This document shows positions 4,961-24,599 of a stretch of 64,000 nt of DNA, in pieces (within the stretch, counting starts at the first letter, position 1; each line of letters begins with the position of its first letter). Source of the DNA: an uncultured Chloroflexia bacterium. GTDB taxonomy: Bacteria > Chloroflexota > Limnocylindria > Limnocylindrales > CSP1-4. The position numbers and the translations under genes are program-made. The DNA lies in NCBI GenBank assembly GCA_963796715.1, contig CAWCMN010000007.1, forward strand, positions 388,586 to 452,585, written 5' to 3'. The notes under the pieces were generated by a model. The model was not told the origin of the DNA, did no database searches, and was given only the letters and a program-made list of their open reading frames with translations.

Positions 4961-5146
4961 CGGCGAGGCGGGGGCAGGCGGCCGACGAGGCGTCGAGGCC
5001 TGGCCGCCCGCCGCTCGCCCGCCCGGTGCGCGACCAGCGCCGCCACCACTCCATCGTCGCCGCCTCCCGACCGGTATCATGCGGCCCCCGGCGGCCACGG
5101 CGCGCACCCGATGGCCGGCAGCGGGACCGAGGAGGAGGAGCGGGCC

Positions 5147-6508
5147 ATGGCGGAGAAGCGCACCAAGTTCGTGCTGGATGAGTCTCGCATCCCGCGCGTC
5201 TGGTACAACATCGCGGCCGACCTGCCGACGCCGCCGGCCCCCGTGCTGCATCCCGGCACGGGCCAGCCGATCGGGCCCGCCGACCTCGCGCCGCTCTTCC
5301 CCATGGCCCTCATCGGCCAGGAGGTGAGCACCGAGCGCGAGATCGAGATCCCCGGTCCGGTACGCGACGCCTATGCGCTCTACCGGCCGTCGCCGCTCTA
5401 TCGCGCCCACCGCCTCGAAGCCGCCCTCCAGACGCCGGCCCACATCTACTACAAGTACGAGGGTGTCAGCCCGGCCGGCAGCCACAAGCCCAACACGGCC
5501 ATCGCCCAGGCGTACTTCAACAAGGCCGAGGGCGTGAAGCGCCTCGCGACCGAGACGGGCGCCGGGCAGTGGGGCACGGCCCTCGCTTTCGCCGGTGCGC
5601 TCTTCGGCCTCGAGGTCAAGGTCTACATGGTGCGCGTGAGCTACGACCAGAAGCCGTACCGGCGCGTGCTGATGGAGGTCTACGGCGCGGAGGTCGTGGC
5701 CAGCCCCAGCCTGACCACCGACTACGGCAAGCGGGTCCTGGCGGAGGACCCCGACAGCCCCGGATCGCTCGGCATCGCCATCTCGGAGGCCGTCGAGGAC
5801 GCGGCCAAGCGCGACGACACGAAATACTCGCTGGGGTCGGTGCTGAACCACGTGCTCCTGCACCAGACGGTCATCGGCCAGGAGGCGATGGAGCAGATGG
5901 CCATGGCCGGCGAGCGCCCCGACGTGATCATCGGGTGCACCGGCGGCGGCTCCAACTTCGCCGGCCTGACCTTCCCGTTCCTGGGCCAGAAGCTGCGCGG
6001 CGAGGCCGACTACCGCGTCATCGCCGTCGAGCCGGAGGCAGCGCCGTCGATGACCCGCGGCGTCTACGCCTACGACTTCGGCGACACCGGCCAGATGACG
6101 CCGCTGGTCAAGATGCACACCCTGGGCCACGACTTCGTGCCCGACCCGATCCACGCCGGCGGCCTGCGCTACCACGGCATGGCGCCGCTCGTCAGCCTGC
6201 TGAAGGAGCAGGGCGTGATCGAAGCCCAGGCCGTCCATCAGCGGGCCACCTTCGAGGCCGGCGTCACCTTCGCCCGGGCGGAGGGCATCCTTCCCGCCCC
6301 GGAGCCGACACACGCCATCAAGGTCGCCATCGACGAGGCGGTCGCCGCCCGCGAGGCCGGCCAGGCCAAGGTGATCCTGTTCAACCTGTGCGGCCACGGC
6401 CACTTCGACCTGTCCGCCTACGAGCGCTACCTCAGCGGGCGCATGGAGGACTACGAGTACCCGACGGAGAAGGTGGCGGCGGCCCTCGCGGGCCTGCCCA
6501 AGGTCTAG
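5147..6508 (+). CDS. trpB: TrpB-like PLP-dependent enzyme (tryptophan synthase beta chain, TrpB2 type)
   Basis: GGAGGAGGAG lies 6 nt before the ATG. PLP-fold motifs are present ([36 protein letters not shown]). Its length (453 aa) and N-terminal extension are typical of the TrpB2 subfamily. Confidence 0.85.
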
Positions 6509-7428
6509 ATCGGGGACCAGCTGGCCGGCGGCGCCTCGCCGGCGAACCCGACCGGGTCCATCAGCTCGGCCAGCAGGGCGACGCCCTCGACGGCCCGCGG
6601 CCCGGGTCGGCTGAAGTAGGCCGACCCGTCGACGACGAACACCTGGCCCTCGCGCACGGCCTGGAGGTCGGCGAACCAGGCGGGATGCGGCGTGCGGGCC
6701 CATTCGTGCCGCGTCTGCGCGGTGTCGAAGCCACACGGCATCAGGAACAGCTGCTGCGGGTCGACGTCGCGGACGGCCTCCCACGTCGTTTCGACGGAGC
6801 GGGCGCCGGCCTGCCCCAGCAGCTCCCAACCGCCGGCGCGCTGCACCTGCTCGGGCACCCAGTGGCCGGCGGTGAACGGCGGATCGAGCCACTCGGCACA
6901 GACCACGCGCCGCGGGGCGACACCGTCGAGGCGCCGCTCGAGCACTCGGTTCTCCAGCGCTGCCAGGCGCTCGCGCAGCACCTCCACGAGGCCGACCGCC
7001 TCGTCCTCGGCGGAGGCATACGCGCCGACCGTGGTGATCGTGTTGAAGATGCCCTCCAGGGAGGTCGGCTCCAGGCTGACCACCGTCACCTCGGCGTCGA
7101 TGGCGCGGACGGCCCCGGTGACCTGTCGGTAACTCACCGCGCAGACCTCGCAGAGCTCCTGGGTCAGGATGAGGTCCGGCCGGGCTGCCGCAAGGCCCGC
7201 CTCGTCGAGGCGGTAGATGGCGCTCCCACCGTGCAGCTGGGCGCGCACGCGATCGTGGATGCGCCGGCTCGTGGCGCCGGGCTCGGGCGTCGCATCGGCC
7301 GTCATGACCGGCACGGCAGCCGCGGCCGGGGGGTAGTCGCACTCGTGGGTCCGACCGACGAGGTCGTCGCCAAGGCCAAGGGCGAAGACGATCTCCGTGG
7401 CCGACGGCAGGAGTGAAACGATGCGCAC
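6505..7428 (-). CDS. ABC-type Fe3+-siderophore/cobalamin-like periplasmic binding protein (TroA/BtuF fold), no obvious signal peptide
   Basis: The N-terminus [19 protein letters not shown] and the [12 protein letters not shown] region match the class III binding-protein fold. Its stop overlaps the trpB2 stop, convergently. Confidence 0.7.
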
Positions 7429-7466
7429 CGCGTCAGCCTAGCGGCTCGACCCAGGTCGGCCGGGCT

Positions 7467-7487
7467 GGCCGGGGTTGAACCCCGGCC
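7467..7487. other. perfect 8 bp stem-loop GGCCGGGGTTGAACCCCGGCC between fdxA and the downstream binding-protein gene
   Basis: Seen directly in the sequence. It has no U-tract and is intercistronic on the minus strand. Confidence 0.35.
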
Positions 7488-7502
7488 GCGGGCGGCGGAG
7501 GG

Positions 7503-7790
7503 TCAGCGAGGTTTCAGACCCTCGACGGCGGCGCGCGCGCCGGCTTTGTCCTCGAACCACTGGGCGTTGACCCGCGTGTAGGCGGCCCACTCGGGCGGCA
7601 GCGAATCCTCGGGGAAGATGGCCGTCACGGGGCACTCGGGCTCGCACGCCCCGCAGTCGATGCACTCGTTGGGGTCGATGTAGAGCATGCGGTCGACGCC
7701 CTGCTCGAAGTGGATACAGTCCACGGGGCAGACCGCCACGCAGGCCTGGTCGATCACGTCGATACAGGGCTCGGCGATGACGTACGTCAT
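7503..7790 (-). CDS. fdxA: 7Fe ferredoxin (3Fe-4S + 4Fe-4S)
   Basis: AAGGAGAT lies 7 nt before the ATG. The protein begins [27 protein letters not shown] and continues [12 protein letters not shown]. The upstream M in the listed ORF (7832) overlaps the RBS and is rejected. Confidence 0.9.
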
Positions 7791-7891
7791 GCGGGCAGAT
7801 CTCCTTGTCCTGCGCGATGTCTTGCTTCGCAAGTGTAGCGTCGGCCCGGCAGCACGCTGCGACCTGACACCGGTCCGCGCGAGGTCGCACG

Positions 7892-8896
7892 GTGCGGTGC
7901 CATCGAGGCGCCGCGACCGTGGTGCCGAGCGAAGGCGTCACCGGCTGGGCCGACATGTGGATGATGTCGACCCACGCCAAGCACCCCAACTGCATGTACA
8001 TGTGGATGGCGTGGGCCCTCAAGCCCGCCACGCAGGTCCAGTCGGCCGAGTGGTTCGGCGAGGCCCCGGCCAACCCGCTGGCCTGCCCCGTCCTTGACAA
8101 GGGCTTCGCCGACGCAGGCCTCAAGAACTTCTGCACCATCTACCACGCGACGGACACGGCGTTCTACAACGCGGTCGCCTTCTGGAAGACCCCCAGTGCG
8201 AACTGCGGCGACAGCCGCGGCCAGACCTGCGTCGACTACAGCAAGTGGGTCGACGCGTACATGGTCGTGGCCGCGATCGTCACCGTGGCGGACGCGGTGA
8301 TCGCCTTCCCCATCGCGTACTTCATGGCGCGCGTCGCGTCGCCGCGCACCCGAGCGGCGCTGGCCGTTGCCGTCCTGCTGCCCCTGTGGGCGAGCTACCT
8401 GGTCTGCGTCTACGCGTGGCGCGTGATCCTCTCCGACAGCGGCCTCGTGGACTGGGTCTTCGCCCAGCTGGGGGTGCCCAACGTGGGGTCGCTCTTCGGC
8501 ATCTCCGACCTGTCGATGACGATCGTCTTCGTCTACCTGTGGCTGCCCTACATGATCCTGCCGATCTTCGCCGGCCTGGAGCGCATCCCCGCCTCGTACC
8601 TGGAGGCATCGGCGGACCTCGGCGGGCACCCCTGGACGACCTTCCGCCGGATCATCCTGCCGCTGGCCATCCCGGCCCTCGCCGCCGGATCGATCTTCAC
8701 CTTCTCGCTGACCCTCGGCGACTACATCACGCCGCAGCTCGTGTCGAACTCGCAGTTCATCGGCAATGTCATCTACGACGAGCTTGGCGTGGCCGGCGAC
8801 ATCCCGTTCGCCGCGGCCTTCGCCATGGTCCCCATCCTGATCATCGCCATCTACCTGCTCATGGTCCGCCGCCTCGGCGCGTTCGAGGCCCTGTGA
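7892..8896 (+). pseudogene. chimeric ORF: C-terminal fragment of a PotD-like polyamine binding protein fused in frame to an N-terminally truncated PotB-like permease (probable deletion remnant)
   Basis: Residues 20-125 (DMWMMSTHAKHPNCMYMWMAWALKPATQVQSAEWFGEAPAN...YSKWVDAY) align with the last roughly 100 aa of PotD/PotF-family binding proteins. The frame then runs without a stop into permease helices (IAFPIAYFMARVASPRTRAALAVAVLLPLWASYLVCVYAWRVIL, EAS-DLG-R signature LEASADLGGHPWTTFRRIILP) with TM1 missing. There is no ATPase gene and no binding-protein N-terminal lobe nearby. Confidence 0.5.
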
Positions 8897-8897
8897 C

Positions 8898-9716
8898 GTG
8901 AGGGCCGCCGTCGCGCGCGTGGGCCTCCAGCTGGCGACCGGCCTGACGATCGCCTTCCTGTACCTGCCGATCGCGATCATCGCCCTGTACGCCTTCAACG
9001 GCGACCGGGCCCAGACCTGGCCGATCACCAACTTCTCCTTGCAGTGGTTCGGCGATGCCTTCAACAACAGCGACGTGCGGGACGCCATGACGCTGTCGAT
9101 CACGATCGCGACGCTGGCCATGCTCGCGGCGGTCGTCCTCGGCACGGCCGCCTCGCTGGCCGTCCACCGCTACCGCTTCTTCGGCCGCGACATCGTCTCG
9201 TTCGCCCTGGTCCTGCCCATCGCGCTGCCGGGGATCATCACGGGCATCGCGCTCAACGCCGCGTTCCGCGGCATCGGCCTCGGCCTGGGCACGCTGACGA
9301 TCGTCATCGGCCACGCCACGTTCTGCGTGGTCGTCGTCTACAACAACGTCATCGCCCGCCTGCGACGGTCCTCGCCCTCGCTTGAGGAGGCCTCCGCCGA
9401 CCTTGGCGCAGACCAGCTCCAGACGTTCCGCTACGTGACGCTGCCGGTCATCCGGACGGCCCTGCTGGCGGGCGCGCTGCTGGCGTTCGCGCTCTCGTTC
9501 GACGAGATCATCGTCGCCTACTTCGTGGCGGGCACGCAGGAGACGATCCCGATCTGGATGTTCAACCACCTGCACCAGGCCAACCAGCGGCCGATCGTCA
9601 ACGTGGTGGCCCTCTTCGTGATCCTCCTTTCCACGATCCCCGTCTACATCTCGCAGCGCCTCGTGGGTGCCGAGGCGACCGCCGGAGCGGCCACCGGGAC
9701 ACGCACGCGGCGCTGA
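8898..9716 (+). CDS. ABC transporter permease (PotC/PotI-like)
   Basis: A GTG start lies 1 nt after the upstream stop. Six TM helices and the EAA loop (EEASADLGADQLQTFRYVTLPV) are present. Confidence 0.8.
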   Translation: MRAAVARVGLQLATGLTIAFLYLPIAIIALYAFNGDRAQTWPITNFSLQWFGDAFNNSDVRDAMTLSITIATLAMLAAVVLGTAASLAVHRYRFFGRDIVSFALVLPIALPGIITGIALNAAFRGIGLGLGTLTIVIGHATFCVVVVYNNVIARLRRSSPSLEEASADLGADQLQTFRYVTLPVIRTALLAGALLAFALSFDEIIVAYFVAGTQETIPIWMFNHLHQANQRPIVNVVALFVILLSTIPVYISQRLVGAEATAGAATGTRTRR

Positions 9717-9728
9717 CGTCGGAGAGGC

Positions 9729-9926
9729 TCAGGCAAGCTGCCGCAACCCGTCAGACCAACGCCAGCTGCCGGTGAGGTCCGGGTCAAGCTGGGCCGCGAC
9801 GATCCACACGGCGAGCACGAGCACGGCGGCGGCGACCAGGACCGCGACCGATAGGAGCCCGCCCGAGACGGGCAGCGGGGCGACCAGGTGGCCGGGGCGG
9901 AAGCGGGACAGGGCGGCGAAGTTCAT
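9729..9926 (-). CDS. small membrane protein (65 aa, one TM helix)
   Basis: GGAGGA lies 9 nt before the ATG, and the TM segment is LLSVAVLVAAAVLVLAVWIVAA. I recognise no family. Confidence 0.4.
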   Translation of the reverse strand: MNFAALSRFRPGHLVAPLPVSGGLLSVAVLVAAAVLVLAVWIVAAQLDPDLTGSWRWSDGLRQLA

Positions 9927-10021
9927 GGTCGGTCATCCTCCGTGGCCTCACGAGCGGGCATCGCGCCCCACGGCGCGATCGGCTCCCGCCACCCTACGGA
10001 TGGCCGCTTGGCGGGCTCTTA

Positions 10022-10492
10022 TCAGGCGCTTATCAGGAGGTCCCGCAGGCGGCGCAGGTCGGCCCGGAAGATGACTTCGAACACGGGCCCGAAGAGGGGA
10101 TCCAGGAGCCTCAGGAGCGGGCCGACCACCTCCGGCAGGCCCAGGCCCGCGGCGTCCGGGCGCAGCTCCTCCCGCCACGTCACGCGAGTCCGCCGGCCGC
10201 CCGGCAGTGGCTCCAGCCAGAAGTCGGCGCGCCCCGTGAAGCCGCCGCCGTGGGTCATGCCGAAGTGGCGACTCGGCTCGAAGGCGGTGACCTCGATGGG
10301 GTCCTCCTGCGTCACGCCGAACATGCGCACCCGGCCGACGGCGCGGAACCCGACCGCCAGCGGACCCGGGCTCGATGGGGTGATCGACTTGAGGTCGCGC
10401 ATCCACGTCGGCTGCCGCTCGAGGTCCACCAGCAGCGCCCACACCGCGTCCGGCGGCGCCGGGAAGGTCAGGGCACGCACGATCACGGGCAC
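10022..10492 (-). CDS. SRPBCC (START/Bet v1-like, polyketide-cyclase-type) protein
   Basis: The N-terminus PDAVWALLVDLERQPTWMRDL is typical of the SRPBCC fold, and it is 156 aa long. Confidence 0.7.
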   Translation of the reverse strand: MPVIVRALTFPAPPDAVWALLVDLERQPTWMRDLKSITPSSPGPLAVGFRAVGRVRMFGVTQEDPIEVTAFEPSRHFGMTHGGGFTGRADFWLEPLPGGRRTRVTWREELRPDAAGLGLPEVVGPLLRLLDPLFGPVFEVIFRADLRRLRDLLISA

Positions 10493-13186: not shown

Positions 13187-15493
13187 TTGAGCCACTTCTT
13201 CACGAGTCTCGGGCGTTTCAGCGTCCGCTTCCGGTACCTCATCGTGGTCATCTGGGTGGTCGGCACGGTGCTGGCGGTCAAGACCCTGCCGTCGCTGAGT
13301 GACGTCGCCAAGGACACCACCAGTGGCTTCCTGCCCGCGAACGCCCCAAGCATGCAGGCGGCCAACCTGGCGGCACCCTTCCAGGACGCGTCGCTCGCCT
13401 CGGCCACCCTCGTCGTGGCGCGGGACGGCGGGCTGACCGCCGCCGATAACGCGGCCGTGGACACCCTGGAGGCGCAGATCCGCAAGGTCCCTCGGGTGAA
13501 GCTCGTGCTCGATCTTGGCGTCTCGGGCGACGGCCAGGCTCGCCAGGCCCTGCTCCAGGCGACCGTGGTCGCGTTCAGTGGCGGCCCCGAGGCCACCGGC
13601 GTGGTCGACGCCATCCGGGCCACCTTCACGACCGTTGGGGCACCGGCCGGCCTGCAGATCCACCTCACCGGCCAGCTGGCGACCCAGATCGACACCATCG
13701 CGGCGACCGGCTCGTCGCAGGACCAGACGTCGCAGCTCTCGCTGCTGTTCATCGTCGTCCTGCTCTTGCTCGCCTTCCGCGCCCTGATCGCGCCGCTCAT
13801 CACGCTGATCCCCGCGGCCTTCGTGCTCGTGCTGTCGGGGCCGGTCATCGCCGAGTCCACGAACCTCGGGGTCCAGGTCTCCTCGATCACCCAGCTGCTG
13901 CTGATCGTGCTGATCCTGGGCGCGGGCACGGACTACGGCGTCTTCCTCGTCTTCCGCGTGCGCGAGGAGTTGCGGCGCGGCCTGACGCCACAGGAGGCCG
14001 TGGTCCGCTCGGTGAGCCGGGTGGGTGAGTCGATCACGTTCTCAGCGTTCACCGTCATCGCGGCGCTGATGAGCCTCGTGCTGGCCGAGTTCGCCTTCTA
14101 CCAGAGCCTGGGCCCCGCGCTCGCGATCGGCATCGGGCTGATGCTGTTGGCCGGCCTGACGCTGCTGCCGGCGCTGCTGGCGATCTTCGGCCGAGCCGTC
14201 TTCTGGCCGACCGGCACGGCCATGCGGCACCAGGACCGGGCCGGCCTCTGGGACCATATCGGCGTCATCGTCACGCGCCGACCGGGCCTCACGCTCACCG
14301 CCGGCGTGGCGCTGTTCGTGGCCCTCGGGGCGACGCTCCTGACGACCGGCGTGGCGGGCTTCGGCGACGTGAGCTCGAGCCCCAGCGGCACCGACTCCGC
14401 GGCCGGGACCGCCCTCATCCAGGCCCACTTCCCCTCCTCGCTCGCCGGGCGCAGCGCCGTCCTCATGCAGTTCCCGAAGTCCGTGTGGGACGACCCATCC
14501 GTGATCGCGCGGGCCCAGACCGGCCTGGGCCAGGTGGCCGAGTTCAGCGGCCTCGTCGGTCCCCTGAACCCTAACGGCATCCCCCTCACGACCGACCAAC
14601 TGGTGCAGCTCCACACGACGCTCGGCCCCGCCGGGCAGCTGCCCCCCGAGCAGACCACGACGGCCGTGACGCCATTGCTCTATAACGCCTACCGGGCCAC
14701 GGCCCAGCTCATCAGCGCCGACGGTCGCACGATCCAGTTCTCGGTGGCCTTCGAGAGCGGCGACGCATCCAGTCCCGCCGCCCTGAACGCCGTGCCGCCG
14801 ATGCGCGCCGACGTCGACCGCGTGGCCCAGGCGGCCGGCGCGACGGCCAACGGCGTCTTCGGTAACACCGCCCTGGCCTATGACGTGAGTGACGTCTCCG
14901 GCCGCGACCTCACGCGGATCATCCCCATCGTCGCGGTCCTCATCGCCCTGTTGCTGGCGGTCGTGCTGCGCAGTCTCGTCGCGCCGCTCTACCTCGTCGC
15001 CAGCATCGTCCTGTCGTACCTCGCGTCCCTGGGCCTCGTGGGCATCATCTTCGTCCATCTCGGCGGCCAGGACGGCTTGAGCTTCATCCTGCCGTTCCTG
15101 ATGTTCGTCTTCCTCATGGCCCTGGGATCCGACTACAACATCCTGATCATGTCGCGCATCCGTGAGGAGGCCCACGGGTTACCCCTGCGCGATGCGGTGG
15201 CGCGGGCCATCGGGCGCACCGGCGGCACCATCACCACCGCCGGCGTCATCCTTGGCGGGACGTTCGCCGTGCTGGCCGTGGCCGGGGGCTCGGCCGGCGG
15301 CGGCCAGATCCAGCAGATCGGCTACGGCGTGGCGGCCGGCATCCTCATGGACACGTTCCTGCTGCGGTCGCTCCTGGTGCCGTCGCTGGTGGTCCTGTTG
15401 GGCGACCGCAACTGGTGGCCGTCGCACCTCTCACGGACACCCCTCGAGGGCGACGCGCGTCATGGATCGGGGGTCACCGCCGCCGACAGGTGA
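13187..15493 (+). CDS. MMPL-family (RND superfamily) membrane transporter
   Basis: A TTG start is preceded by AAAGGGA. Two 6-TM bundles are each followed by a large loop, and MMPL motifs are present (GAGTDYGVFLVFRVREE, ALGSDYNILIMSRIREE). Confidence 0.8.
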   Translation: MSHFFTSLGRFSVRFRYLIVVIWVVGTVLAVKTLPSLSDVAKDTTSGFLPANAPSMQAANLAAPFQDASLASATLVVARDGGLTAADNAAVDTLEAQIRKVPRVKLVLDLGVSGDGQARQALLQATVVAFSGGPEATGVVDAIRATFTTVGAPAGLQIHLTGQLATQIDTIAATGSSQDQTSQLSLLFIVVLLLLAFRALIAPLITLIPAAFVLVLSGPVIAESTNLGVQVSSITQLLLIVLILGAGTDYGVFLVFRVREELRRGLTPQEAVVRSVSRVGESITFSAFTVIAALMSLVLAEFAFYQSLGPALAIGIGLMLLAGLTLLPALLAIFGRAVFWPTGTAMRHQDRAGLWDHIGVIVTRRPGLTLTAGVALFVALGATLLTTGVAGFGDVSSSPSGTDSAAGTALIQAHFPSSLAGRSAVLMQFPKSVWDDPSVIARAQTGLGQVAEFSGLVGPLNPNGIPLTTDQLVQLHTTLGPAGQLPPEQTTTAVTPLLYNAYRATAQLISADGRTIQFSVAFESGDASSPAALNAVPPMRADVDRVAQAAGATANGVFGNTALAYDVSDVSGRDLTRIIPIVAVLIALLLAVVLRSLVAPLYLVASIVLSYLASLGLVGIIFVHLGGQDGLSFILPFLMFVFLMALGSDYNILIMSRIREEAHGLPLRDAVARAIGRTGGTITTAGVILGGTFAVLAVAGGSAGGGQIQQIGYGVAAGILMDTFLLRSLLVPSLVVLLGDRNWWPSHLSRTPLEGDARHGSGVTAADR

Positions 15494-15761: not shown

Positions 15762-15837
15762 GCGGGAGTAGCTCAGTTGGCAGAGCGGCAGCCTTCCAAG
15801 CTGCATGTCGCGGGTTCGAACCCCGTCTCCCGCTCCA
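15762..15837 (+). tRNA. tRNA-Gly (anticodon UCC), CCA encoded
   Basis: The cloverleaf was folded by hand: acceptor GCGGGAG/CTCCCGC, D arm GCTC-AGTTGGCA-GAGC, anticodon arm GCAGC-CTTCCAA-GCTGC, T arm GCGGG-TTCGAAC-CCCGT. A TAGGCT -10 box sits at 15745-15750. Confidence 0.9.
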
Positions 15838-17355: not shown

Positions 17356-17372
17356 GGTCGGTCAGACTACCA

Positions 17373-17406
17373 CTTGACAGACCATCTCCACTCACTTTAT
17401 AAAGTG
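17373..17406 (+). promoter_or_regulatory. sigma70-like promoter TTGACA-N18-TATAAA overlapped by a perfect 14 bp palindrome CACTTTATAAAGTG (candidate ROK/NagC-type operator)
   Basis: This is an AT-rich perfect palindrome at 17393-17406 in a roughly 72 % GC background. It lies in the divergent nagA / ROK-regulator spacer, overlapping the -10. Confidence 0.5.
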
Positions 17407-17457
17407 TCCGTACATTGTCGCGGACCGCCCTGAGGATGGAGGCCGGAACCCCGCCGG

Positions 17458-18657
17458 ATGCCGACGCTCGAGAAGGCCACGCACCAGCAGACTCGCGCGT
17501 ACAACAGCCAGCTCGTGCTGCGCACCGTCTACGACCGCAGCGCCATCAGCCGCTCCGAGATCGCCCGCATGACGGGCCTCACCCCCACGTCGGTGTCCGA
17601 TCTCGTGCGCGAGATCATCGACGCCGGGCTCATCGAGGAGGTCGGCCGCGGCCCGTCCACCGGCGGCAAGGCGCCCATCCTCCTGCGGGTCGTGCCGCGC
17701 GGCCGCGAGGTCATCGGGCTCGACCTGGACGGCAAGGCCTTCACCGGCGTGCGGGTCGACCTGCGCGGGCAGATCCTGCGCGCCGCCGAGCGGCCGCTGG
17801 ACGGCCGCGACGGCGCAGAGGCCCTCGGCCTCGTCTTCAGCCTCCTCGACGAGCTGACCGAACGCTCCCCTGCCCCCCTCCTCGGCATCGGCATCGGCGC
17901 CCCGGGGGTCATCGACGCCGCGACCGGGACGGTGCGCTGGGCGGCCAACCTGGACTGGTCCGACCTGCCGCTCGGCCGGCTGGTGGCGGAGCGCTTCGAG
18001 ACCACCGTCAACGTGGGCAACGACAGCCAGGCCGCGGCCCTCGCCGAGTACACCTTCGGCGGCGCGCCGCGACCGGAGAACCTGGTCGTGGTCAAGGTCG
18101 GCCAGGGCATCGGGGCCGGCATCATCCTTGGCGGCCGCCTCTACCAGGGCGACGGCTCCGGGGCCGGTGAGATCGGGCACACGACGGTCGTCGAGGACGG
18201 CGAGCCATGCCGCTGCGGCAGCCTGGGCTGCCTCGAGACCGTGGCCAGCATGCGCGCCATCGTCGCCCGCGTGCGCCACCTGGCGGCCCATCGACCGGCC
18301 ACCTCCACCCTGCCGGCCGAGGCGACGCGCATCGACGAGGCGGCCGTGGCGGCCGCATTCCTGGCCGGTGACGAGGTGGCGCGCACGGTCGTCGAAGATG
18401 CCGCGCGGCAGCTGGGCCGGGCCCTGGCGGCGCTGGTCGGGGCGTTCAACGTGCGCCAGATCCGCATCGTCGGCTCCGTCCATGCCTTCGGCGACCCGTG
18501 GCTGCAGGTCGTGCGGCGCGAAGTCCGCAGCCACGCCATGCCGCTGCTGGCGAATGAGACCGAGGTCGTGTTCGGGCGCACGCAGGACCACGTCGTGGCT
18601 CTCGGCGCGGGCGCGCTGCTCCTGACGCGCGAGCTCGGCCTGAGCCTCGCCCGATGA
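17458..18657 (+). CDS. ROK-family transcriptional regulator (NagC/Mlc/XylR type)
   Basis: An N-terminal winged HTH (ISRSEIARMTGLTPTSVSDLVREII) is followed by a ROK sugar-kinase-like domain with the Zn motif CRCGSLGCLE. Confidence 0.85.
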   Translation: MPTLEKATHQQTRAYNSQLVLRTVYDRSAISRSEIARMTGLTPTSVSDLVREIIDAGLIEEVGRGPSTGGKAPILLRVVPRGREVIGLDLDGKAFTGVRVDLRGQILRAAERPLDGRDGAEALGLVFSLLDELTERSPAPLLGIGIGAPGVIDAATGTVRWAANLDWSDLPLGRLVAERFETTVNVGNDSQAAALAEYTFGGAPRPENLVVVKVGQGIGAGIILGGRLYQGDGSGAGEIGHTTVVEDGEPCRCGSLGCLETVASMRAIVARVRHLAAHRPATSTLPAEATRIDEAAVAAAFLAGDEVARTVVEDAARQLGRALAALVGAFNVRQIRIVGSVHAFGDPWLQVVRREVRSHAMPLLANETEVVFGRTQDHVVALGAGALLLTRELGLSLAR

Positions 18658-19661
18658 CCACCCTCCGGCCCCGCTCAGGACGCCCGGCCGGCTCCAGCCT
18701 GGTGCTGGGGCTCGACGTGGGCGGCACGAAGAGCGCCGCGCTCCTGGTTGACGACGACGACCGCGTCGTGGGCCGTGCTGCGGCGCCGACCCGCCACGAT
18801 GCGGCGGCGTACGGCATCGTCGAGCTGGCGCGCGACATCCTCGACCGTGCCGAGGTCCTGCCGGGCGACCTCGCCGCCGTCGGCGTCGGCCTGCCCGGCC
18901 ACGTCGACCCGGCCGCCGGCACGGTCGCCCTGGCGGTCAACCTGGACGGCCTGCCCCAGCCCATCGCCAGCGTCGTCGAGGAGGCGCTCGGCGTCCCCTG
19001 CTTCATCGACCACGACGCCCGCGCGGCCGCCCGCTGGATCGCGCGGCTCGACCGCGGCGCCCACCGCAGCATCGGCTATGTCTCGATCGGGACGGGCATC
19101 TCGGCCGGCCTCGTCCTCGACGGCGTGGTCGTCACCGGCGCCCTCGGCATGGCCGGTGAGATCGGCCACCTGGCCGCCCATCCGGACGGCTTGCTCTGCC
19201 TGTGCGGCCTGCACGGCTGCCTCGAGACCGTGGCCAGCGGCCCGGCCATCGCCCGCGAGGCCGGCACGATGAGCGCCGGGGATGCCTTTGCCGCCGCCGC
19301 AGCGGGTGACGCGCGGGCGCAGGCGGCCATCGCCGCGGCCACGACGCACCTCGCGCGCGCCATCCGCGGCCTCGTCCTGACCTTCGGCCTCGATCACGTG
19401 GTGGTCGGCGGGGGGGTCGCTCGGGCCGGCGCGGCCCTGATGGAGCCCCTGCTCGCGGTGCTCGCCAAGGAGCGCGACGAGTCGTCGCTCGTGCGGACGC
19501 TGCTTGCCGACGACGTGGTGCGGCGCCAGCCGGCCGATGCCGAGGCGGGTGCATGGGGCGCCGTGACGGTCGCGCGCGACGGCCTCCGCGCTGGTTCATC
19601 GCGCGGCATGTCTGACCGAGAGGAGGTGGGGCGACGAGATGTGACCACCCAGTCGGGGTGA
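18654..19661 (+). CDS. ROK-family sugar kinase (GlcNAc kinase / glucokinase)
   Basis: The ATP-binding motif LGLDVGGTKSA and the ROK Zn motif CLCGLHGCLE are present, with no HTH. It overlaps the regulator's stop by 4 nt. Confidence 0.8.
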   Translation: MTTLRPRSGRPAGSSLVLGLDVGGTKSAALLVDDDDRVVGRAAAPTRHDAAAYGIVELARDILDRAEVLPGDLAAVGVGLPGHVDPAAGTVALAVNLDGLPQPIASVVEEALGVPCFIDHDARAAARWIARLDRGAHRSIGYVSIGTGISAGLVLDGVVVTGALGMAGEIGHLAAHPDGLLCLCGLHGCLETVASGPAIAREAGTMSAGDAFAAAAAGDARAQAAIAAATTHLARAIRGLVLTFGLDHVVVGGGVARAGAALMEPLLAVLAKERDESSLVRTLLADDVVRRQPADAEAGAWGAVTVARDGLRAGSSRGMSDREEVGRRDVTTQSG

Positions 19662-19745
19662 TCGATCCCGCGACGCCCCTCGCGTCGCGGTCGTGGCCAG
19701 GCGATCCGGAGGGCCGGCGCCATCAGATGGAGGAGATCCAAGCTG

Positions 19746-21148
19746 TGACCAAGTTCAAGCATCTGGCGCTCGGGATGGCGTTGGTCGTCATCCTGGCCGC
19801 CTGCGGCTCGAGTGCGACACCAACGGGCACGCCGACCGGCGCTGCCGCCACGCCCACTCCCGCGGCGACCACGGGCGCCTCCAGCAGCCCGACCACGGCC
19901 GCCTCCACGAGCGCCGCCCCGCTGGCGGTCGACCCGGCCGAGGCCGTCATCCCCAATGTCGAACCCAACGCCGAGATCCACTTCTGGACCTACTACCTGT
20001 CCCCCACGTTCGACCAGTACATCAAGGACACCATCGCCCGCTTCGAGGGCACGTACCCCGGCGTGAAGGTCGACTGGGAGGACCACCAGGGCACCTTCAA
20101 GGACGACCTCAACGCCGCCTTTTCGGCCGGCAAGGCGCCCGACGTCATCAACCTGTCGGTGTCCGAGGGCTGGGTCTCCGAGTACGCCTCGAAGGGCCTG
20201 CTCCTGCCGCTCGATGACAAGGTCCCCGCGGCCGTCCAGGCCACCTACTTCCCGGGTCTGTGGAAGGAACAGATCGTCGGCGGCAAGAACTTCCAGTTCC
20301 CCTGGTACCAGGGCATCAACGTCGACCTGATCAACAAGCAGCTCTTCGACGCGGCCGGCGTCAACGTGTCCGACTTCCCCAAGACCATCGACGGCCTGAA
20401 GCCGCTCTGCCAGACGCTCCACGACAAGGCCAACACGGTCTGTGACATCCGCCTGACGGTGAACGACATCATCAGCCAGATGGTCTACGAGGGCGGCGTC
20501 ACACCCATCAGCGCCGACGGCAAGAAGTTCACCTTCGACTCGCCCGAGGCGGTCGCCTGGCTCCAGCAGTACGTCGACATGGTCAAGGCCGGGACGGTCG
20601 ACAACGACATCCTGACCACCGACCAGGACCGCCTGGGCCTCCTCCTCTTCTCGTCCGGCCAGGCGCCGTTCTACGCGACCGGCCTTAACCTCATCCGCGA
20701 CGTGAAGTCCAACAACTCCCAGCTGTACGGCAACCTGGCCGTCGCCCCGGCGCCGGTCGGCAAGTCCGGCGTGGTCGGCAAGGGCCTCATGGGCATCTCC
20801 GTCAAGGCCGACACGAAGTTCCCCAATGCCTCCATGGCGCTGGCGCAGTTCTTCACCAACGCCCGGAGCATGGTCGCCTTCTCCAAGATCGTGGCCATCT
20901 ACCCGTCGGTCATCGCCTCGTACGACGACCCGTTCTTCTCCACGACCGGGGGCGCCATCGAGGACAGCGCCCGCTCGTCGGCCAAGGACGTGGTCTCGCA
21001 CTACGCCGACATCGTCCCGGACATCCCCAGCAAGGCCGATGTGAACGACATCGTGCTCAAGGCCGTGGAGTCGGCCATCTTCAACGGAGTCGATCCGCAG
21101 AAGGCGTTGAGTGACGCCGTCATCGCGGCCGACAAGTTCATCAAGTAG
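19746..21148 (+). CDS. sugar ABC transporter substrate-binding lipoprotein (family 1)
   Basis: A GTG start lies 9 nt after GGAGGAG. The lipoprotein signal VTKFKHLALGMALVVILAAC is followed by a Thr/Pro-rich linker and a binding-protein fold. The upstream ATG at 19658 or 19727 is an alternative start. Confidence 0.75.
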
Positions 21149-21154
21149 GGTCCC

Positions 21155-22102
21155 TTGACCCAGTCGCGTCAGCTCGAGCCGGCCTTGCCATCGCGGCGGG
21201 GCCGGCTCGCGCCGAAGGAGGGCACGGGGCGTCGCCGGTTCTCGGTGACGCCCTACCTCTTCCTGGCGCCGGCCCTCATCCTCATCGGGATCTTCGTCCT
21301 CTACCCCATCGCGGCCGTCGTGGTCATCAGCCTGACCAACTACGACATCGTCCGGCCGCCGGTCTTCAACGGCCTCGACAACTACGCCCAGCTGGTGGCC
21401 GACCCGGTGTTCTGGAAGGCCCTGGGCAACTCGATCGTCTACCTCATCGTCACGCCGATCATCATCGCCCTCTCGGTGGGCCTGGCCATCATCGTCAACC
21501 GCAAGCTGCGCGGGATCCAGATCTTCCGCGCGCTCTACTTCATCCCCGCCGTCAGCGGCAGCATCGCCATCGGCATCGCCTGGCGCTGGCTCTTCGACCG
21601 CAACGGCTTCCTCAACAGCGTCCTGATCTCGGTGGGCTGGATCAAGGAGCCCGTCCAGTGGCTGAGCGATCCGTCGTACGTCCTGCCCATCGCCATGATG
21701 CTCACGATCTGGGCCGGCATCGGCTACTACTCGGTCATCTTCCTGGCCGGGCTGCAGAACATCTCGGAAGAGCTGTACGACGCGGCCCGCCTCGACGGCT
21801 GCAACAACTTCCAGAAGCACTGGTACGTGAGCGTGCCGGGCCTGCGGCCGCAGATCGTCTTCGTGGCCGTCATCTCGAGCCTGGCCGCGCTCAAGGTCTT
21901 CGATGAGATCTACGTCCTGACCGGCGCGACCGGCGGCATCCTCGACAGCGGCACGACGATCGTCTTCTACCTCTGGAAAGAGGCCTTCAAGCTCGAGCAC
22001 GCGGGCTACGCCGCGGCCATCGCCATGGTCCTGCTGGTGCTGACGCTGGCCTTCTCGATCATCAATGTGCGCTTCCTCGAGCGCGGCACGGCGACCGAGT
22101 GA
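21155..22102 (+). CDS. sugar ABC transporter permease (MalF/UgpA type)
   Basis: Six TM helices and the EAA motif YDAARLDGCNNFQKHWYVSVPGL are present. Confidence 0.85.
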   Translation: MTQSRQLEPALPSRRGRLAPKEGTGRRRFSVTPYLFLAPALILIGIFVLYPIAAVVVISLTNYDIVRPPVFNGLDNYAQLVADPVFWKALGNSIVYLIVTPIIIALSVGLAIIVNRKLRGIQIFRALYFIPAVSGSIAIGIAWRWLFDRNGFLNSVLISVGWIKEPVQWLSDPSYVLPIAMMLTIWAGIGYYSVIFLAGLQNISEELYDAARLDGCNNFQKHWYVSVPGLRPQIVFVAVISSLAALKVFDEIYVLTGATGGILDSGTTIVFYLWKEAFKLEHAGYAAAIAMVLLVLTLAFSIINVRFLERGTATE

Positions 22103-23004
22103 TGGCCCGCCCGAGCGTCCTCGAGGCAACACCGGCGACCGGCACGGCGACGTCCGTGGCGTCGGCCCATCGGCAGTCCCCGCGGCGGCGCTTCGGCGAG
22201 CCGGTGTTCTGGTACGTCGTGCTGCTGCTCATCGCGGTCGTGACGGTCTTCCCCTTCGCCTGGATCCTGCTGACCTCGGTCAAGGGGCCGCAGGACGTGC
22301 TGTTCTCGACGCCGCCGCAGTTCATCCCCCATGACCCGACGCTGGCCAACTACGCCCGGGTGCTGGATGCCCTGCCCATCCCCACGTTCTTCCAGAACAG
22401 CATCGTGGTGGCCATCCTGACCACCGGCGGCAACGTCCTGGTCGCGTCGCTGGCGGCCTACCCGCTGGCGCGCATGAAGTTCCGCGGCCGCGACCCGATC
22501 TTCTACCTGCTCATCGCGACGCTGATCGTGCCCGTCCAGCTGACGTTCATCCCGGGCTACCTGATGGCCCAGTTCTTCGGCTACTACGACTCGCTGCCGG
22601 CCGTCATCCTGCCGGCCCTCGTGAGCGCCTTTAACATCTTCCTCATGCGCCAGGCGTTCCGCGGCGTCCCCGGGGAGCTCATCGACGCGGCCCGGGTCGA
22701 CGGTGCCCGCGAGTGGCGCATCTGGTGGCAGATCCTGGTGCCGCTGGTGCGGCCGTCGATCGCCGCCGTGGCGATCTTCACCTTCGTGACCTCGTGGAAC
22801 GACTTCTTCTGGCCGTCCCTCATGTTGCCGACGGTGGCCAACAAGACGCTGCCCGTCGGCCTGATCGCGCTCCAGGGCTACTTCAGCTCGGACTTCCGCT
22901 CGATCGCCGCCGGCGTGACCCTCACGGTCGTACCCATCCTCATCTTCTTCATCTTCGTCCAGCGCTACTTCGTGCGCGGCCTGGCCGGCGCGGTCAAGGG
23001 GTGA
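22099..23004 (+). CDS. sugar ABC transporter permease (MalG/UgpE type)
   Basis: The EAA motif IDAARVDGAREWRIWWQILVPL is present, and the gene overlaps the upstream stop by 4 nt. Confidence 0.85.
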   Translation: MMARPSVLEATPATGTATSVASAHRQSPRRRFGEPVFWYVVLLLIAVVTVFPFAWILLTSVKGPQDVLFSTPPQFIPHDPTLANYARVLDALPIPTFFQNSIVVAILTTGGNVLVASLAAYPLARMKFRGRDPIFYLLIATLIVPVQLTFIPGYLMAQFFGYYDSLPAVILPALVSAFNIFLMRQAFRGVPGELIDAARVDGAREWRIWWQILVPLVRPSIAAVAIFTFVTSWNDFFWPSLMLPTVANKTLPVGLIALQGYFSSDFRSIAAGVTLTVVPILIFFIFVQRYFVRGLAGAVKG

Positions 23005-24599
23005 CGGCGCCGAACCGTCTGCAGCGCCGGGCCGGGGCGCGTCTCGTGCGCTCGTTCGTGGGCCTGACCCCGACACGCGAGATCGTCGCCTCGCTCGAGG
23101 GGGGCCGGGGGGCCGGCGTGGGCCTCTACCGGACGGCCAACATCGCGTCGGCGCAGCAGCTGCAGGCCCTCACGGGGGCCCTCCAGGCGGCGCGGCCGCG
23201 CGGCGAGCCGCCGCTCGTCATCGCCCTGGACCAGGAGGGCGGCCAGCTCCAGGCCTTCGCCGCGGACGGGGCGACGGCCTGGCCGGGCAACCTGGCCCTC
23301 GGCGCGACCGGCTCGGTGGCGCTCGCGCGGCGGGCGGGCGAGGCCATCGGCCGTGAGCTCGCGGCGGTCGGCGTGAACACCGTGTGGGCCCCCGTGTGCG
23401 ACCTGCTCGTCGACGGCAACGTGGCCATGGGCACGCGTCCCTTCGGCGACGAGCCGGTCGCCGCCGGACGGATGGCCGCCGCGATGGTGCGCGGCCTCCA
23501 GTCGGCCGGGGTCGCGGCGACCGTGAAGCACCTGCCCGGCCACGGCTCGGCGCGGGCCGACCCGCACTACCGCCTGCCGGTCGTGGAGGCCACCGCGGAC
23601 GAGATCCGCCGACGCGACCTCGTGCCCTTCGAGGGCGCGCTCCGGGCCCGCCCGAAGCTCGCCATGGTGGGCCACATGGCCGTGCCAGCGCTCACCGGCG
23701 ACCGCGCCCTGCCGGCGACGTTCTCCTCCGCGATCGCCGGACGACTCCTGCGCGACGAGCTCGGGTTCCGCGGCGTCAGCGTGACCGACGCGCTGAACAT
23801 GGGCGCGCTCGGGGCGGCCGACCAGGCATCCGACCACGCCGTGCGGGCGGCTGAGGCGGGTTTCGACCTCCTGCTGCTCCTGCAGGAACCGGCGGTCGAG
23901 GAACAGGCCGTCGACGCGGTCCTCGCCGCGCTGGCCGACGGATCGCTGGACGCCGCGGGCGCCGGTGCCGCGGCCGGCCGCATCTTCGCCCTGCGCCGCT
24001 GGCTCGGCCGGCTGGCCGCCGGTGCTCGAGCGGGGCTCGACATCGTGGGCTGCAGCGCGCATCTCGCCCTTGCCCGCGAGATCGCCGAGCGCTCGATCAC
24101 CCTGGTCCGGGACCGCGAGGGGCTCCTGCCGCTCCGCCCGACCGGCTCGGCCCCGCTCCTCGTGCTCGCCCCCCGACCGGTCGACCTGACGCCGGCCGAC
24201 ACGTCCTCGTACCTACACTTCGGCCTGGCCGAGGCCATCGGCGCTCGGGGCCTGTCAGCCCAGGCGGTGGAGATCCCCCTGGACCCGAGTCCCGCCGATA
24301 TCGCCGCGCTCCGCGCCGCCGCTGCCGGCCGAACGGTCGTGGTCGGCACGATCGACGCGTCGGTGCACGATGGGCAGGGGGCGCTCGTGCGTGCCCTCCT
24401 GGCCGACGGGGTGGCGGTCATCCCGGTCGCGCTGCGCACGCCCTTCGACCTGGAGGCGTACCCCATGGCAGGGACCTGGATCTGCAGCCACGGCATCCAG
24501 CCGCCGACGGTGGAGGCGCTCGCCGACGCGCTCCTTGGCCGCATCCCCTTCACCGGCCGGCTCCCCGTGCGGCTCGGCCGCCAGGCGGCCGCGGCATGA
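23001..24599 (+). CDS. glycoside hydrolase family 3 protein (beta-N-acetylhexosaminidase, NagZ-like)
   Basis: A GTG in GTGA overlaps the upstream stop. GH3 N-domain motifs are present (LVIALDQEGGQLQAF, ATVKHLPGHG, GFRGVSVTDAL). Confidence 0.8.
   Translation: MTAPNRLQRRAGARLVRSFVGLTPTREIVASLEGGRGAGVGLYRTANIASAQQLQALTGALQAARPRGEPPLVIALDQEGGQLQAFAADGATAWPGNLALGATGSVALARRAGEAIGRELAAVGVNTVWAPVCDLLVDGNVAMGTRPFGDEPVAAGRMAAAMVRGLQSAGVAATVKHLPGHGSARADPHYRLPVVEATADEIRRRDLVPFEGALRARPKLAMVGHMAVPALTGDRALPATFSSAIAGRLLRDELGFRGVSVTDALNMGALGAADQASDHAVRAAEAGFDLLLLLQEPAVEEQAVDAVLAALADGSLDAAGAGAAAGRIFALRRWLGRLAAGARAGLDIVGCSAHLALAREIAERSITLVRDREGLLPLRPTGSAPLLVLAPRPVDLTPADTSSYLHFGLAEAIGARGLSAQAVEIPLDPSPADIAALRAAAAGRTVVVGTIDASVHDGQGALVRALLADGVAVIPVALRTPFDLEAYPMAGTWICSHGIQPPTVEALADALLGRIPFTGRLPVRLGRQAAAA

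Follow-up and report, generated by a model that had tools for sequence, protein, structure and literature searches.

Does a reading frame that begins as the tail of a substrate-binding protein and continues as the permease of an ABC transporter encode a working product, or is it what a lost operon has left behind? The question is raised by one locus in a 64-kb stretch of DNA (the window), which has a G+C content of about 72% and comes from an uncultured high-GC bacterium. The initial annotation of this stretch took the locus for the scar of one or two deletions that had removed most of a polyamine-type transporter operon, and pointed to the risk that it could be mistaken for an intact permease.

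Results

The frame joins the end of a binding protein to a permease

The open reading frame was confirmed at 334 residues, counted from its first GTG, and is bounded upstream by an in-frame stop at 7863–7865 (Table 1). Searches against NCBIfam returned separate matches to its two parts, bearing out the initial reading of the frame as a chimera of a binding-protein C-terminal fragment and a permease that lacks its first transmembrane helix (TM1). Residues 7–124 matched the C-terminal end of the YdcS model (profile positions 269–373 of 379, E = 7.9e-25, 87.4 bits), with a weaker showing for PotF, while residues 117–324 matched PotH (profile positions 93–304 of 317, E = 2.7e-35) and PotB (profile positions 65–271 of 285). 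Pfam recognised BPD_transp_1 alone, at residues 139–324, and gave no match in the N-terminal 125 residues even at E ≤ 10; NCBIfam was therefore needed to identify the binding-protein fragment.

In tblastn, residues 304–422 of the binding protein fell on window positions 7913–8269 with 95% identity, and residues 8–123 of the chimera correspond to the last 116 residues (codons 304–419) of a 424-residue YdcS/PotD-type lipoprotein binding protein. The N-terminal half is missing, as had been noted, and in all 27% of the protein is kept and 73% lost in the window copy. The intact orthologue opens with a lipoprotein signal (...LASAC) that is absent from the fragment, and hydropathy analysis of the fragment showed no hydrophobic segment and 19 charged residues. 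Residues 57–424 of the intact protein align with the solved structure 6NLP_A (E = 5.9e-95), its matches to PotD and PotF being weaker. The fragment had been described as the last lobe of a PotD/PotF-type protein; its C-terminal origin stands, but it is YdcS-like rather than strictly PotD/PotF-like and, judged from the alignment to solved PotD/PotF and from established domain boundaries, probably holds pieces of both lobes. From what is established about this two-lobed fold, a C-terminal piece of 116 residues would be incapable of forming a binding site.

The remainder of the chimera (residues 124–334) is a PotB/PotH-like permease, hereafter permease 1, minus its first 83 residues. Hydropathy analysis found five hydrophobic segments in the chimera and six in the intact orthologue. 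The latter aligns from its residue 24 with residues 11–273 of E. coli PotB (8Y5F, chain B), which shows that the lost residues 1–83 hold TM1 and the first outer loop.

Table 1 Features of the locus, in window coordinates.
Feature	Position	Strand	Remarks
fdxA-like 7Fe ferredoxin gene, 95 aa	7503..7790	-	Pfam Fer4 families; ATG at 7790, as in the calls of L001–L003
fdxA–ATPase intergenic remnant	7791..7922	+	132 of 185 bp kept; the 53 bp nearest the ATPase start deleted
Chimeric open reading frame, whole	7892..8896	+	334 aa; public call P0001 from GTG 7919, 325 aa
Junction 1, sole surviving copy of CGCGACCGTGG	7912..7922	+	blastn blocks overlap by 11 bp
YdcS/PotD-type binding-protein C-terminal fragment	7913..8260	+	codons 304–419 of 424; without signal peptide or lipobox
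Junction 2, hybrid ATG	8261..8263	+	A from binding-protein codon 420, TG from permease 1 codon 84
PotB/PotH-like permease 1 remnant	8264..8896	+	residues 85–294 of 294 plus stop; TM2–TM6 and EAA loop kept, TM1 lost
PotC/PotI-like permease 2, full length, 272 aa	8898..9716	+	NCBIfam PotC, profile positions 13–252 of 257, E = 3.5e-47

Relatives at the same locus carry four separate, intact genes

A protein search with the chimera, of which the best 120 of 8000 scored hits were listed, contained a single match that covers the binding-protein part. This was P0001, the chimera's own public call, which forms a singleton protein cluster, and the N-terminal extension was thus, among these best 120 hits, confined to the window's own protein. 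The other listed matches were permeases, mostly of about 270–310 aa and covering about 60–93% of the query; the closest of those listed, P0002 and P0003, have 294 aa and are 98% identical over the permease part. Exact-sequence look-ups with P0001 and with the downstream permease of the window (permease 2) returned no contigs on record, and the context of the locus was drawn from the near-identical intact permeases P0002 and P0003.

Three contigs from ENA metagenome assemblies (L001–L003) are syntenic with the window, at 94–97% DNA identity over about 17 kb. Immediately next to fdxA, L002 and L003 encode an ATPase of 377 aa, a binding protein of 424 aa, and permeases of 294 and 272 aa, all intact; L001 has the same operon DNA as these two, but with three 1-bp indels. 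A fourth syntenic contig (L004), with 86–91% identity over 11 kb, carries the same operon intact. The flanks are likewise common to the window and L002–L004: TrpB-like, Peripla_BP_2 and fdxA genes border the locus at one end, polyketide-cyclase-like, LOG and MFS genes at the other.

We extended the comparison to 80 loci from species-representative genomes, covering Limnocylindrales/Chloroflexota, Actinomycetota, Thermoleophilia and others. The order ATPase, binding protein, permease, permease was found in nearly every one of these loci with enough flank, the binding protein being matched from about residue 61, and permease 1 from about residues 1–20, through to their ends; in a few long-read loci the matches were fragmented. 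Orthologues sharing the N-terminal extension had been named at the outset as what would speak against a scar, and the chimeric fusion was found in 0 of 83 related loci.

Several features of these relatives deserve mention in their own right. The indels of L001 are three 1-bp C insertions (L002 coordinates 8180, 8447 and 9245) that disrupt both the ATPase gene and the binding-protein gene. We considered whether L001 is losing its operon independently and rejected this reading, as the indel rate is alike throughout the contig (36 per roughly 20 kb relative to L002), and the insertions are probably assembly noise. L004 (DASPUH010000013.1) is titled Candidatus Sulfotelmatobacter sp. (Acidobacteriota) despite its 11 kb of synteny with the window; after it, the operon is closest to those of Limnocylindrales/Chloroflexota MAGs, and the taxonomic label or the binning of L004 may be wrong.

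Gene content near the locus differs among close relatives. L003 contains an IS481-type transposase gene (rve, LZ_Tnp_IS481) adjoining the Peripla_BP_2 gene and an additional gene for a MarR-family regulator, which separates the LOG-like gene from the MFS gene (at 5073–6029 and 13455–13925, respectively), both absent from the window. A 7.2-kb segment of the window (17364–24582), flanked by an amidohydrolase gene and a SIS-domain gene, is missing in L001 and L003, where about 100 bp of unrelated spacer is found. The segment encodes a ROK-family regulator, a ROK kinase, an SBP_bac_1 sugar-type binding protein, two permeases and a GH3 glycosidase, and by its gene content looks like an ATPase-less uptake cluster for amino sugars or oligosaccharides; its GC content of 0.712, against 0.72 for the window, gives no compositional hint of recent import.

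Two deletions separate the window from the intact operon

Alignment of the window with L002 by blastn gave three collinear blocks, pairing the window up to 7922 with L002 up to 7533, window 7912–8261 with L002 9625–9974, and the window from 8262 onwards with L002 from 10251. Comparing the breakpoints base by base with L001–L003, we mapped two deletions, of 2102 and 276 bp, in line with the proposal that one or two such events had removed most of the operon. The first is bounded by an 11-bp direct repeat, CGCGACCGTGG (L002 7523–7533 and 9625–9635), and removed the final 53 bp of the leader, the entire ATPase gene and binding-protein codons 1–303. The second (92 codons; L002 9975–10250) is blunt, in frame and without microhomology, and removed the last five codons of the binding protein (TTIRG), its stop codon, a 9-bp spacer and permease 1 codons 1–83. 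In the intact locus the binding-protein and permease 1 genes are in the same frame and, with 276 divisible by 3, a single open frame resulted.

A 6-bp inverted repeat lies at the second deletion, where the deleted segment starts with CGACCA (L002 9975–9980) and the right flank with TGGTCG (L002 10251–10256; the site in the window is 8261–8267). A small hairpin could have drawn the ends of this deletion together, a repeat of 6 bp being possibly due to chance. Translocation in place of deletion was considered and rejected, the deleted DNA and proteins being unmatched elsewhere in the window apart from one DNA match at chance level (51 nt, 76%).

An in-frame joint is also what a genuine, evolved fusion of binding domain and permease (SBD-TMD type) would display. 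Natural SBD-TMD fusion importers exist, and the permease part of the chimera matches, weakly, the NCBIfam model MMSYN1_0195 for a spermidine/putrescine permease/substrate-binding fusion. However, with 116 of 424 binding-protein residues (27%) in the frame, the ligand-binding fold cannot be complete, and the fragment stands N-terminal to a helix that needs an outside N-terminus, yet carries no signal sequence. The architecture is moreover a singleton, the relatives having separate full-length genes throughout the 83 loci, and we consider an evolved fusion exceedingly improbable.

A different doubt attaches to the junctions themselves, which might have arisen in metagenome assembly or in polishing of the consensus, for instance from mixed strains, with the operon intact in the organism. 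The source is a contig (739,767 bp) of an uncultured genome, and the metagenome assemblies of the relatives are rich in indels (for L003, 35 per roughly 20 kb against L002, next to the 36 of L001). Searches of JGI metagenomes with k-mers found neither junction in independent contigs: a 22-mer across junction 2 had 0 matches, a null that is uninformative, and a 23-mer across junction 1, GGCGCCGCGACCGTGGTGCCGAG, had 20, all of them in unrelated contigs. Against this, neither a repeat of 11 bp nor a blunt joint is nearly long enough to make an assembler collapse sequence, and both resemble the products of illegitimate recombination.

The 20 JGI contigs (L084–L103), all from soil metagenomes, contain GGCGCCGCGACCGTGGTGCCGAG exactly, share 25–34 nt with the window and are without binding-protein or permease homology to the locus. 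These matches seem too numerous to be due to chance, which suggests a conserved segment of an unrelated abundant gene.

Neighbouring genes and expression signals

The former operon is bounded upstream by the divergent fdxA gene. Its start is the ATG listed in Table 1, as opposed to the TTG at 7832 of the mechanical list of reading frames. The first GTG of the chimera lies 101 bp, and the deletion junction 122–132 bp, from this start, distances that replace the figure of about 60 bp given by the initial annotation. The extent of the intergenic remnant was taken from L002, in which fdxA starts at 7401, the ATPase gene starts at 7587 and the alignment with the window runs up to 7533.

A GAGG motif resembling a Shine–Dalgarno (SD) sequence is found 11 nt ahead of GTG 7892, 14 nt ahead of GTG 7919, and also before the start of permease 2, while no such motif precedes the ATG created at junction 2. 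A search for sigma-70-like promoters over 7400–10100 gave no match, which is uninformative for an organism of such high GC content. Both remnant frames are open, neither containing a frameshift or a stop. Expression is thus possible, given the open frames, the SD-like motifs and the survival of 132 bp of the intergenic region that bears the promoter. Rfam, run over the whole window, reported one tRNA and no riboswitch at the chimera locus; this single tRNA gene (15762–15834) lies between MMPL and amidohydrolase genes.

Downstream, the PotC-like permease 2 is complete, as had been claimed, and orphaned. The claim that an ATPase gene is missing also holds, tblastn with the orthologous ATPase having found no ABC ATPase in the 64-kb window at E ≤ 1e-3.

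Selection is relaxed on the remnants

For the window and for L001–L003, we counted the codon changes found in one of these four sequences alone, in three remnant segments and six flanking genes. The ratio of non-synonymous to synonymous (N/S) singletons was 10/15 in the window's remnants, compared to 3/41 in the intact lineages together (Fisher p = 0.0012) and 9/61 in the window's six flanking genes (p = 0.007). With L004 as outgroup, derived N/S changes, which are small counts, numbered 7/6 in the remnants, compared to 1/18 in the intact lineages (p = 0.003) and 4/38 in the flanking genes (p = 0.002). Omega, when unpolarised, was about 0.24 on the window branch against 0.03 in the intact lineages and 0.05 in the flanks; when polarised, it was about 0.4 on the window branch. 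Both values for this branch are raised but below 1, and come from few substitutions.

Five of the 10 window-specific replacements introduced residues never seen at their position in 73–80 homologues. These are T318M in the binding protein, R132C in permease 1, and R11Q, T207A and I221M in permease 2, the last two at family-invariant positions (T in 75/75 and I in 75/75). The counts are small and the pattern consistent; judged from these substitutions, constraint is lost on the window lineage only, the still-complete permease 2 included. Two marks of a pseudogene are present at this locus, namely a derived truncation relative to intact orthologues in the same place (two deletions, four syntenic relatives) and, on small counts, relaxed purifying selection.

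These data also bear on the possibility of an assembly artefact. An artefactual gap would leave normal purifying selection on the operon, so the excess of non-synonymous changes indicates that the operon has really been inactive for some time. Sequencing errors of the substitution type would strike the flanks equally, but the flanking genes on the same contig are without the derived excess found in the remnants. Together with the changes at invariant sites, this excess argues for a real and not very recent deletion rather than an artefact, which we regard as quite unlikely.

The same substitutions matter for the question of whether some function persists, with the five-helix core of permease 1 and permease 2 operating together with an ATPase and a binding protein from elsewhere in the genome, and with translation starting either at the head of the chimeric frame or at ATG 8261, the start codon created at the junction. 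TM2–TM6 and the EAA loop are intact, permease 2 is of full length, both frames are open with SD-like motifs and most of the intergenic region in place, and omega on the window branch is below 1. It is established for MetI that five-TM permease cores work in other ABC importers; ATPase-less ABC operons served in trans exist, and the window itself holds an ATPase-less sugar ABC cluster. However, ATG 8261 has no SD-like motif, an ATPase gene forms part of the operon in essentially all 80 loci, and no relative has the chimeric arrangement. The changes R132C, T207A and I221M at invariant sites indicate a loss of constraint in both permeases. The product of the chimeric frame, if made, would be a 116-residue piece that lacks an export signal and is followed by a permease starting with TM2, a helix that needs its N-terminus outside; the long, charged, unexported segment would have to cross the membrane, which makes correct insertion of TM2 unlikely. 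We judge residual function of this kind to be unlikely.

Family of the lost importer

The ATPase of the intact relatives passes the cut-off of the polyamine PotA subfamily model TIGR01187 (378.3 vs 355.6 bits). The intact binding protein of L002 matches the YdcS model NF041888 over profile positions 17–377 of 379 (E = 2.6e-113, 378.7 bits), yet both this orthologue and the window fragment (87.4 bits) stay under its equivalog cut-off of 725 bits, and the protein would accordingly count as a YdcS homologue and not, by the NCBI criterion, as an orthologue. Equivalog cut-offs are likewise missed by the chimera (PotH, 122 vs 489 bits; PotB, 113 vs 348 bits) and by permease 2 (PotC, 161 vs 326 bits), and the permeases of the intact relatives also fall below those for PotB/H and PotC/I. 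With permease and binding-protein scores under these cut-offs, the substrate is not assignable from the family, and the profile matches place the ancestral system among the polyamine-type (PotABCD/YdcSTUV-like) ABC importers.

Among characterised systems, E. coli PotABCD and PotFGHI (TC 3.A.1.11; PDB 8Y5F) provide the nearest comparison for the permeases. Permease 1 of the relatives aligns with PotB (8Y5F_B, E = 5.9e-28) and PotH, permease 2 with PotC and PotI, and the binding protein, more distantly, with PotD and PotF; the remnants in the window match the same models. The relatives differ from potA-B-C-D in gene order, with the ATPase gene followed by those for the binding protein and the two permeases, and in the window copy, moreover, the ATPase is missing, the binding protein has lost 73% of its length and permease 1 is without TM1. 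Measured against what a functional importer of the PotABCD/PotFGHI type contains, no cognate ATPase is encoded with the permeases in the 64-kb window, and the complete two-lobed binding protein with its signal is reduced to codons 304–419 of 424. Where two six-helix permeases with EAA loops belong, permease 2 is complete and permease 1 keeps TM2–TM6 and the EAA region, without residues 1–83.

In E. coli, the genes of the YdcSTUV system are ordered ydcS-T-U-V. The binding protein of the relatives is most similar to YdcS, with 6NLP_A as the closest solved structure, whereas their gene order departs from this arrangement. A review (PMC6135910) connects E. coli YdcS with natural transformation and with PHB synthesis, roles that cannot be transferred to the window's system.

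Discussion

Taken together, our data indicate that the locus is very probably what deletions have left of a polyamine-family ABC importer operon with four genes, and is most likely non-functional and drifting. The ancestral operon would have encoded an ATPase (377 aa), a binding protein (424 aa), permease 1 (294 aa) and permease 2 (272 aa), divergently from fdxA. A deletion between the two copies of CGCGACCGTGG has the signature of slipped-strand or microhomology-mediated illegitimate recombination and may have arisen in this way, and the blunt 276-bp deletion fused the remnants of the binding protein and of permease 1 in frame; the two deletions may have occurred in one event or in two. With no cognate ATPase, no functional binding protein and a TM2 unlikely to insert correctly, the locus is most likely non-functional, and the relaxed selection on the remnants supports this. 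We infer from the sequence that expression or function is probably lacking at the locus.

In several respects, the locus resembles other pseudogenes that arise by deletion between short direct repeats, with ends in an 11-bp repeat of which one copy is kept, a later loss of constraint, and a reading frame that is still called. Slightly uncommon for this class is the in-frame second deletion that joins two genes. The five helices TM2–TM6 and the EAA loop also recall the five-TM core of MetI-type permeases, but the truncation from a six-helix protein is recent here, the N-terminus is a foreign piece of 116 residues, a partner ATPase is absent and selection is relaxed. A more far-reaching reading, in which the chimera is expressed and forms, with permease 2, a working or neo-functional MetI-like five-helix complex with a tethered binding-protein fragment and an ATPase from elsewhere, is very unlikely in our view; if true, it would capture a stage in the origin of fused or minimal ABC permeases through deletion.

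We return to the deletion remnant, which is an ordinary pseudogenised locus, a known kind of gene loss that opens no new biological question. Its main consequence is a trap for annotation. Public collections hold a 325-aa coding sequence with a single Pfam domain, BPD_transp_1, which makes the mis-annotation foreseen initially plausible; a pipeline would probably name the chimera an ABC transporter permease and so count a polyamine-type importer that could not be assembled from this locus. The locus also illustrates operon loss neatly and at base resolution, in an uncultured soil bacterium of high GC content, joining a microhomology-mediated deletion and a blunt in-frame deletion with a measurable relaxation of selection, even on a gene that looks complete.
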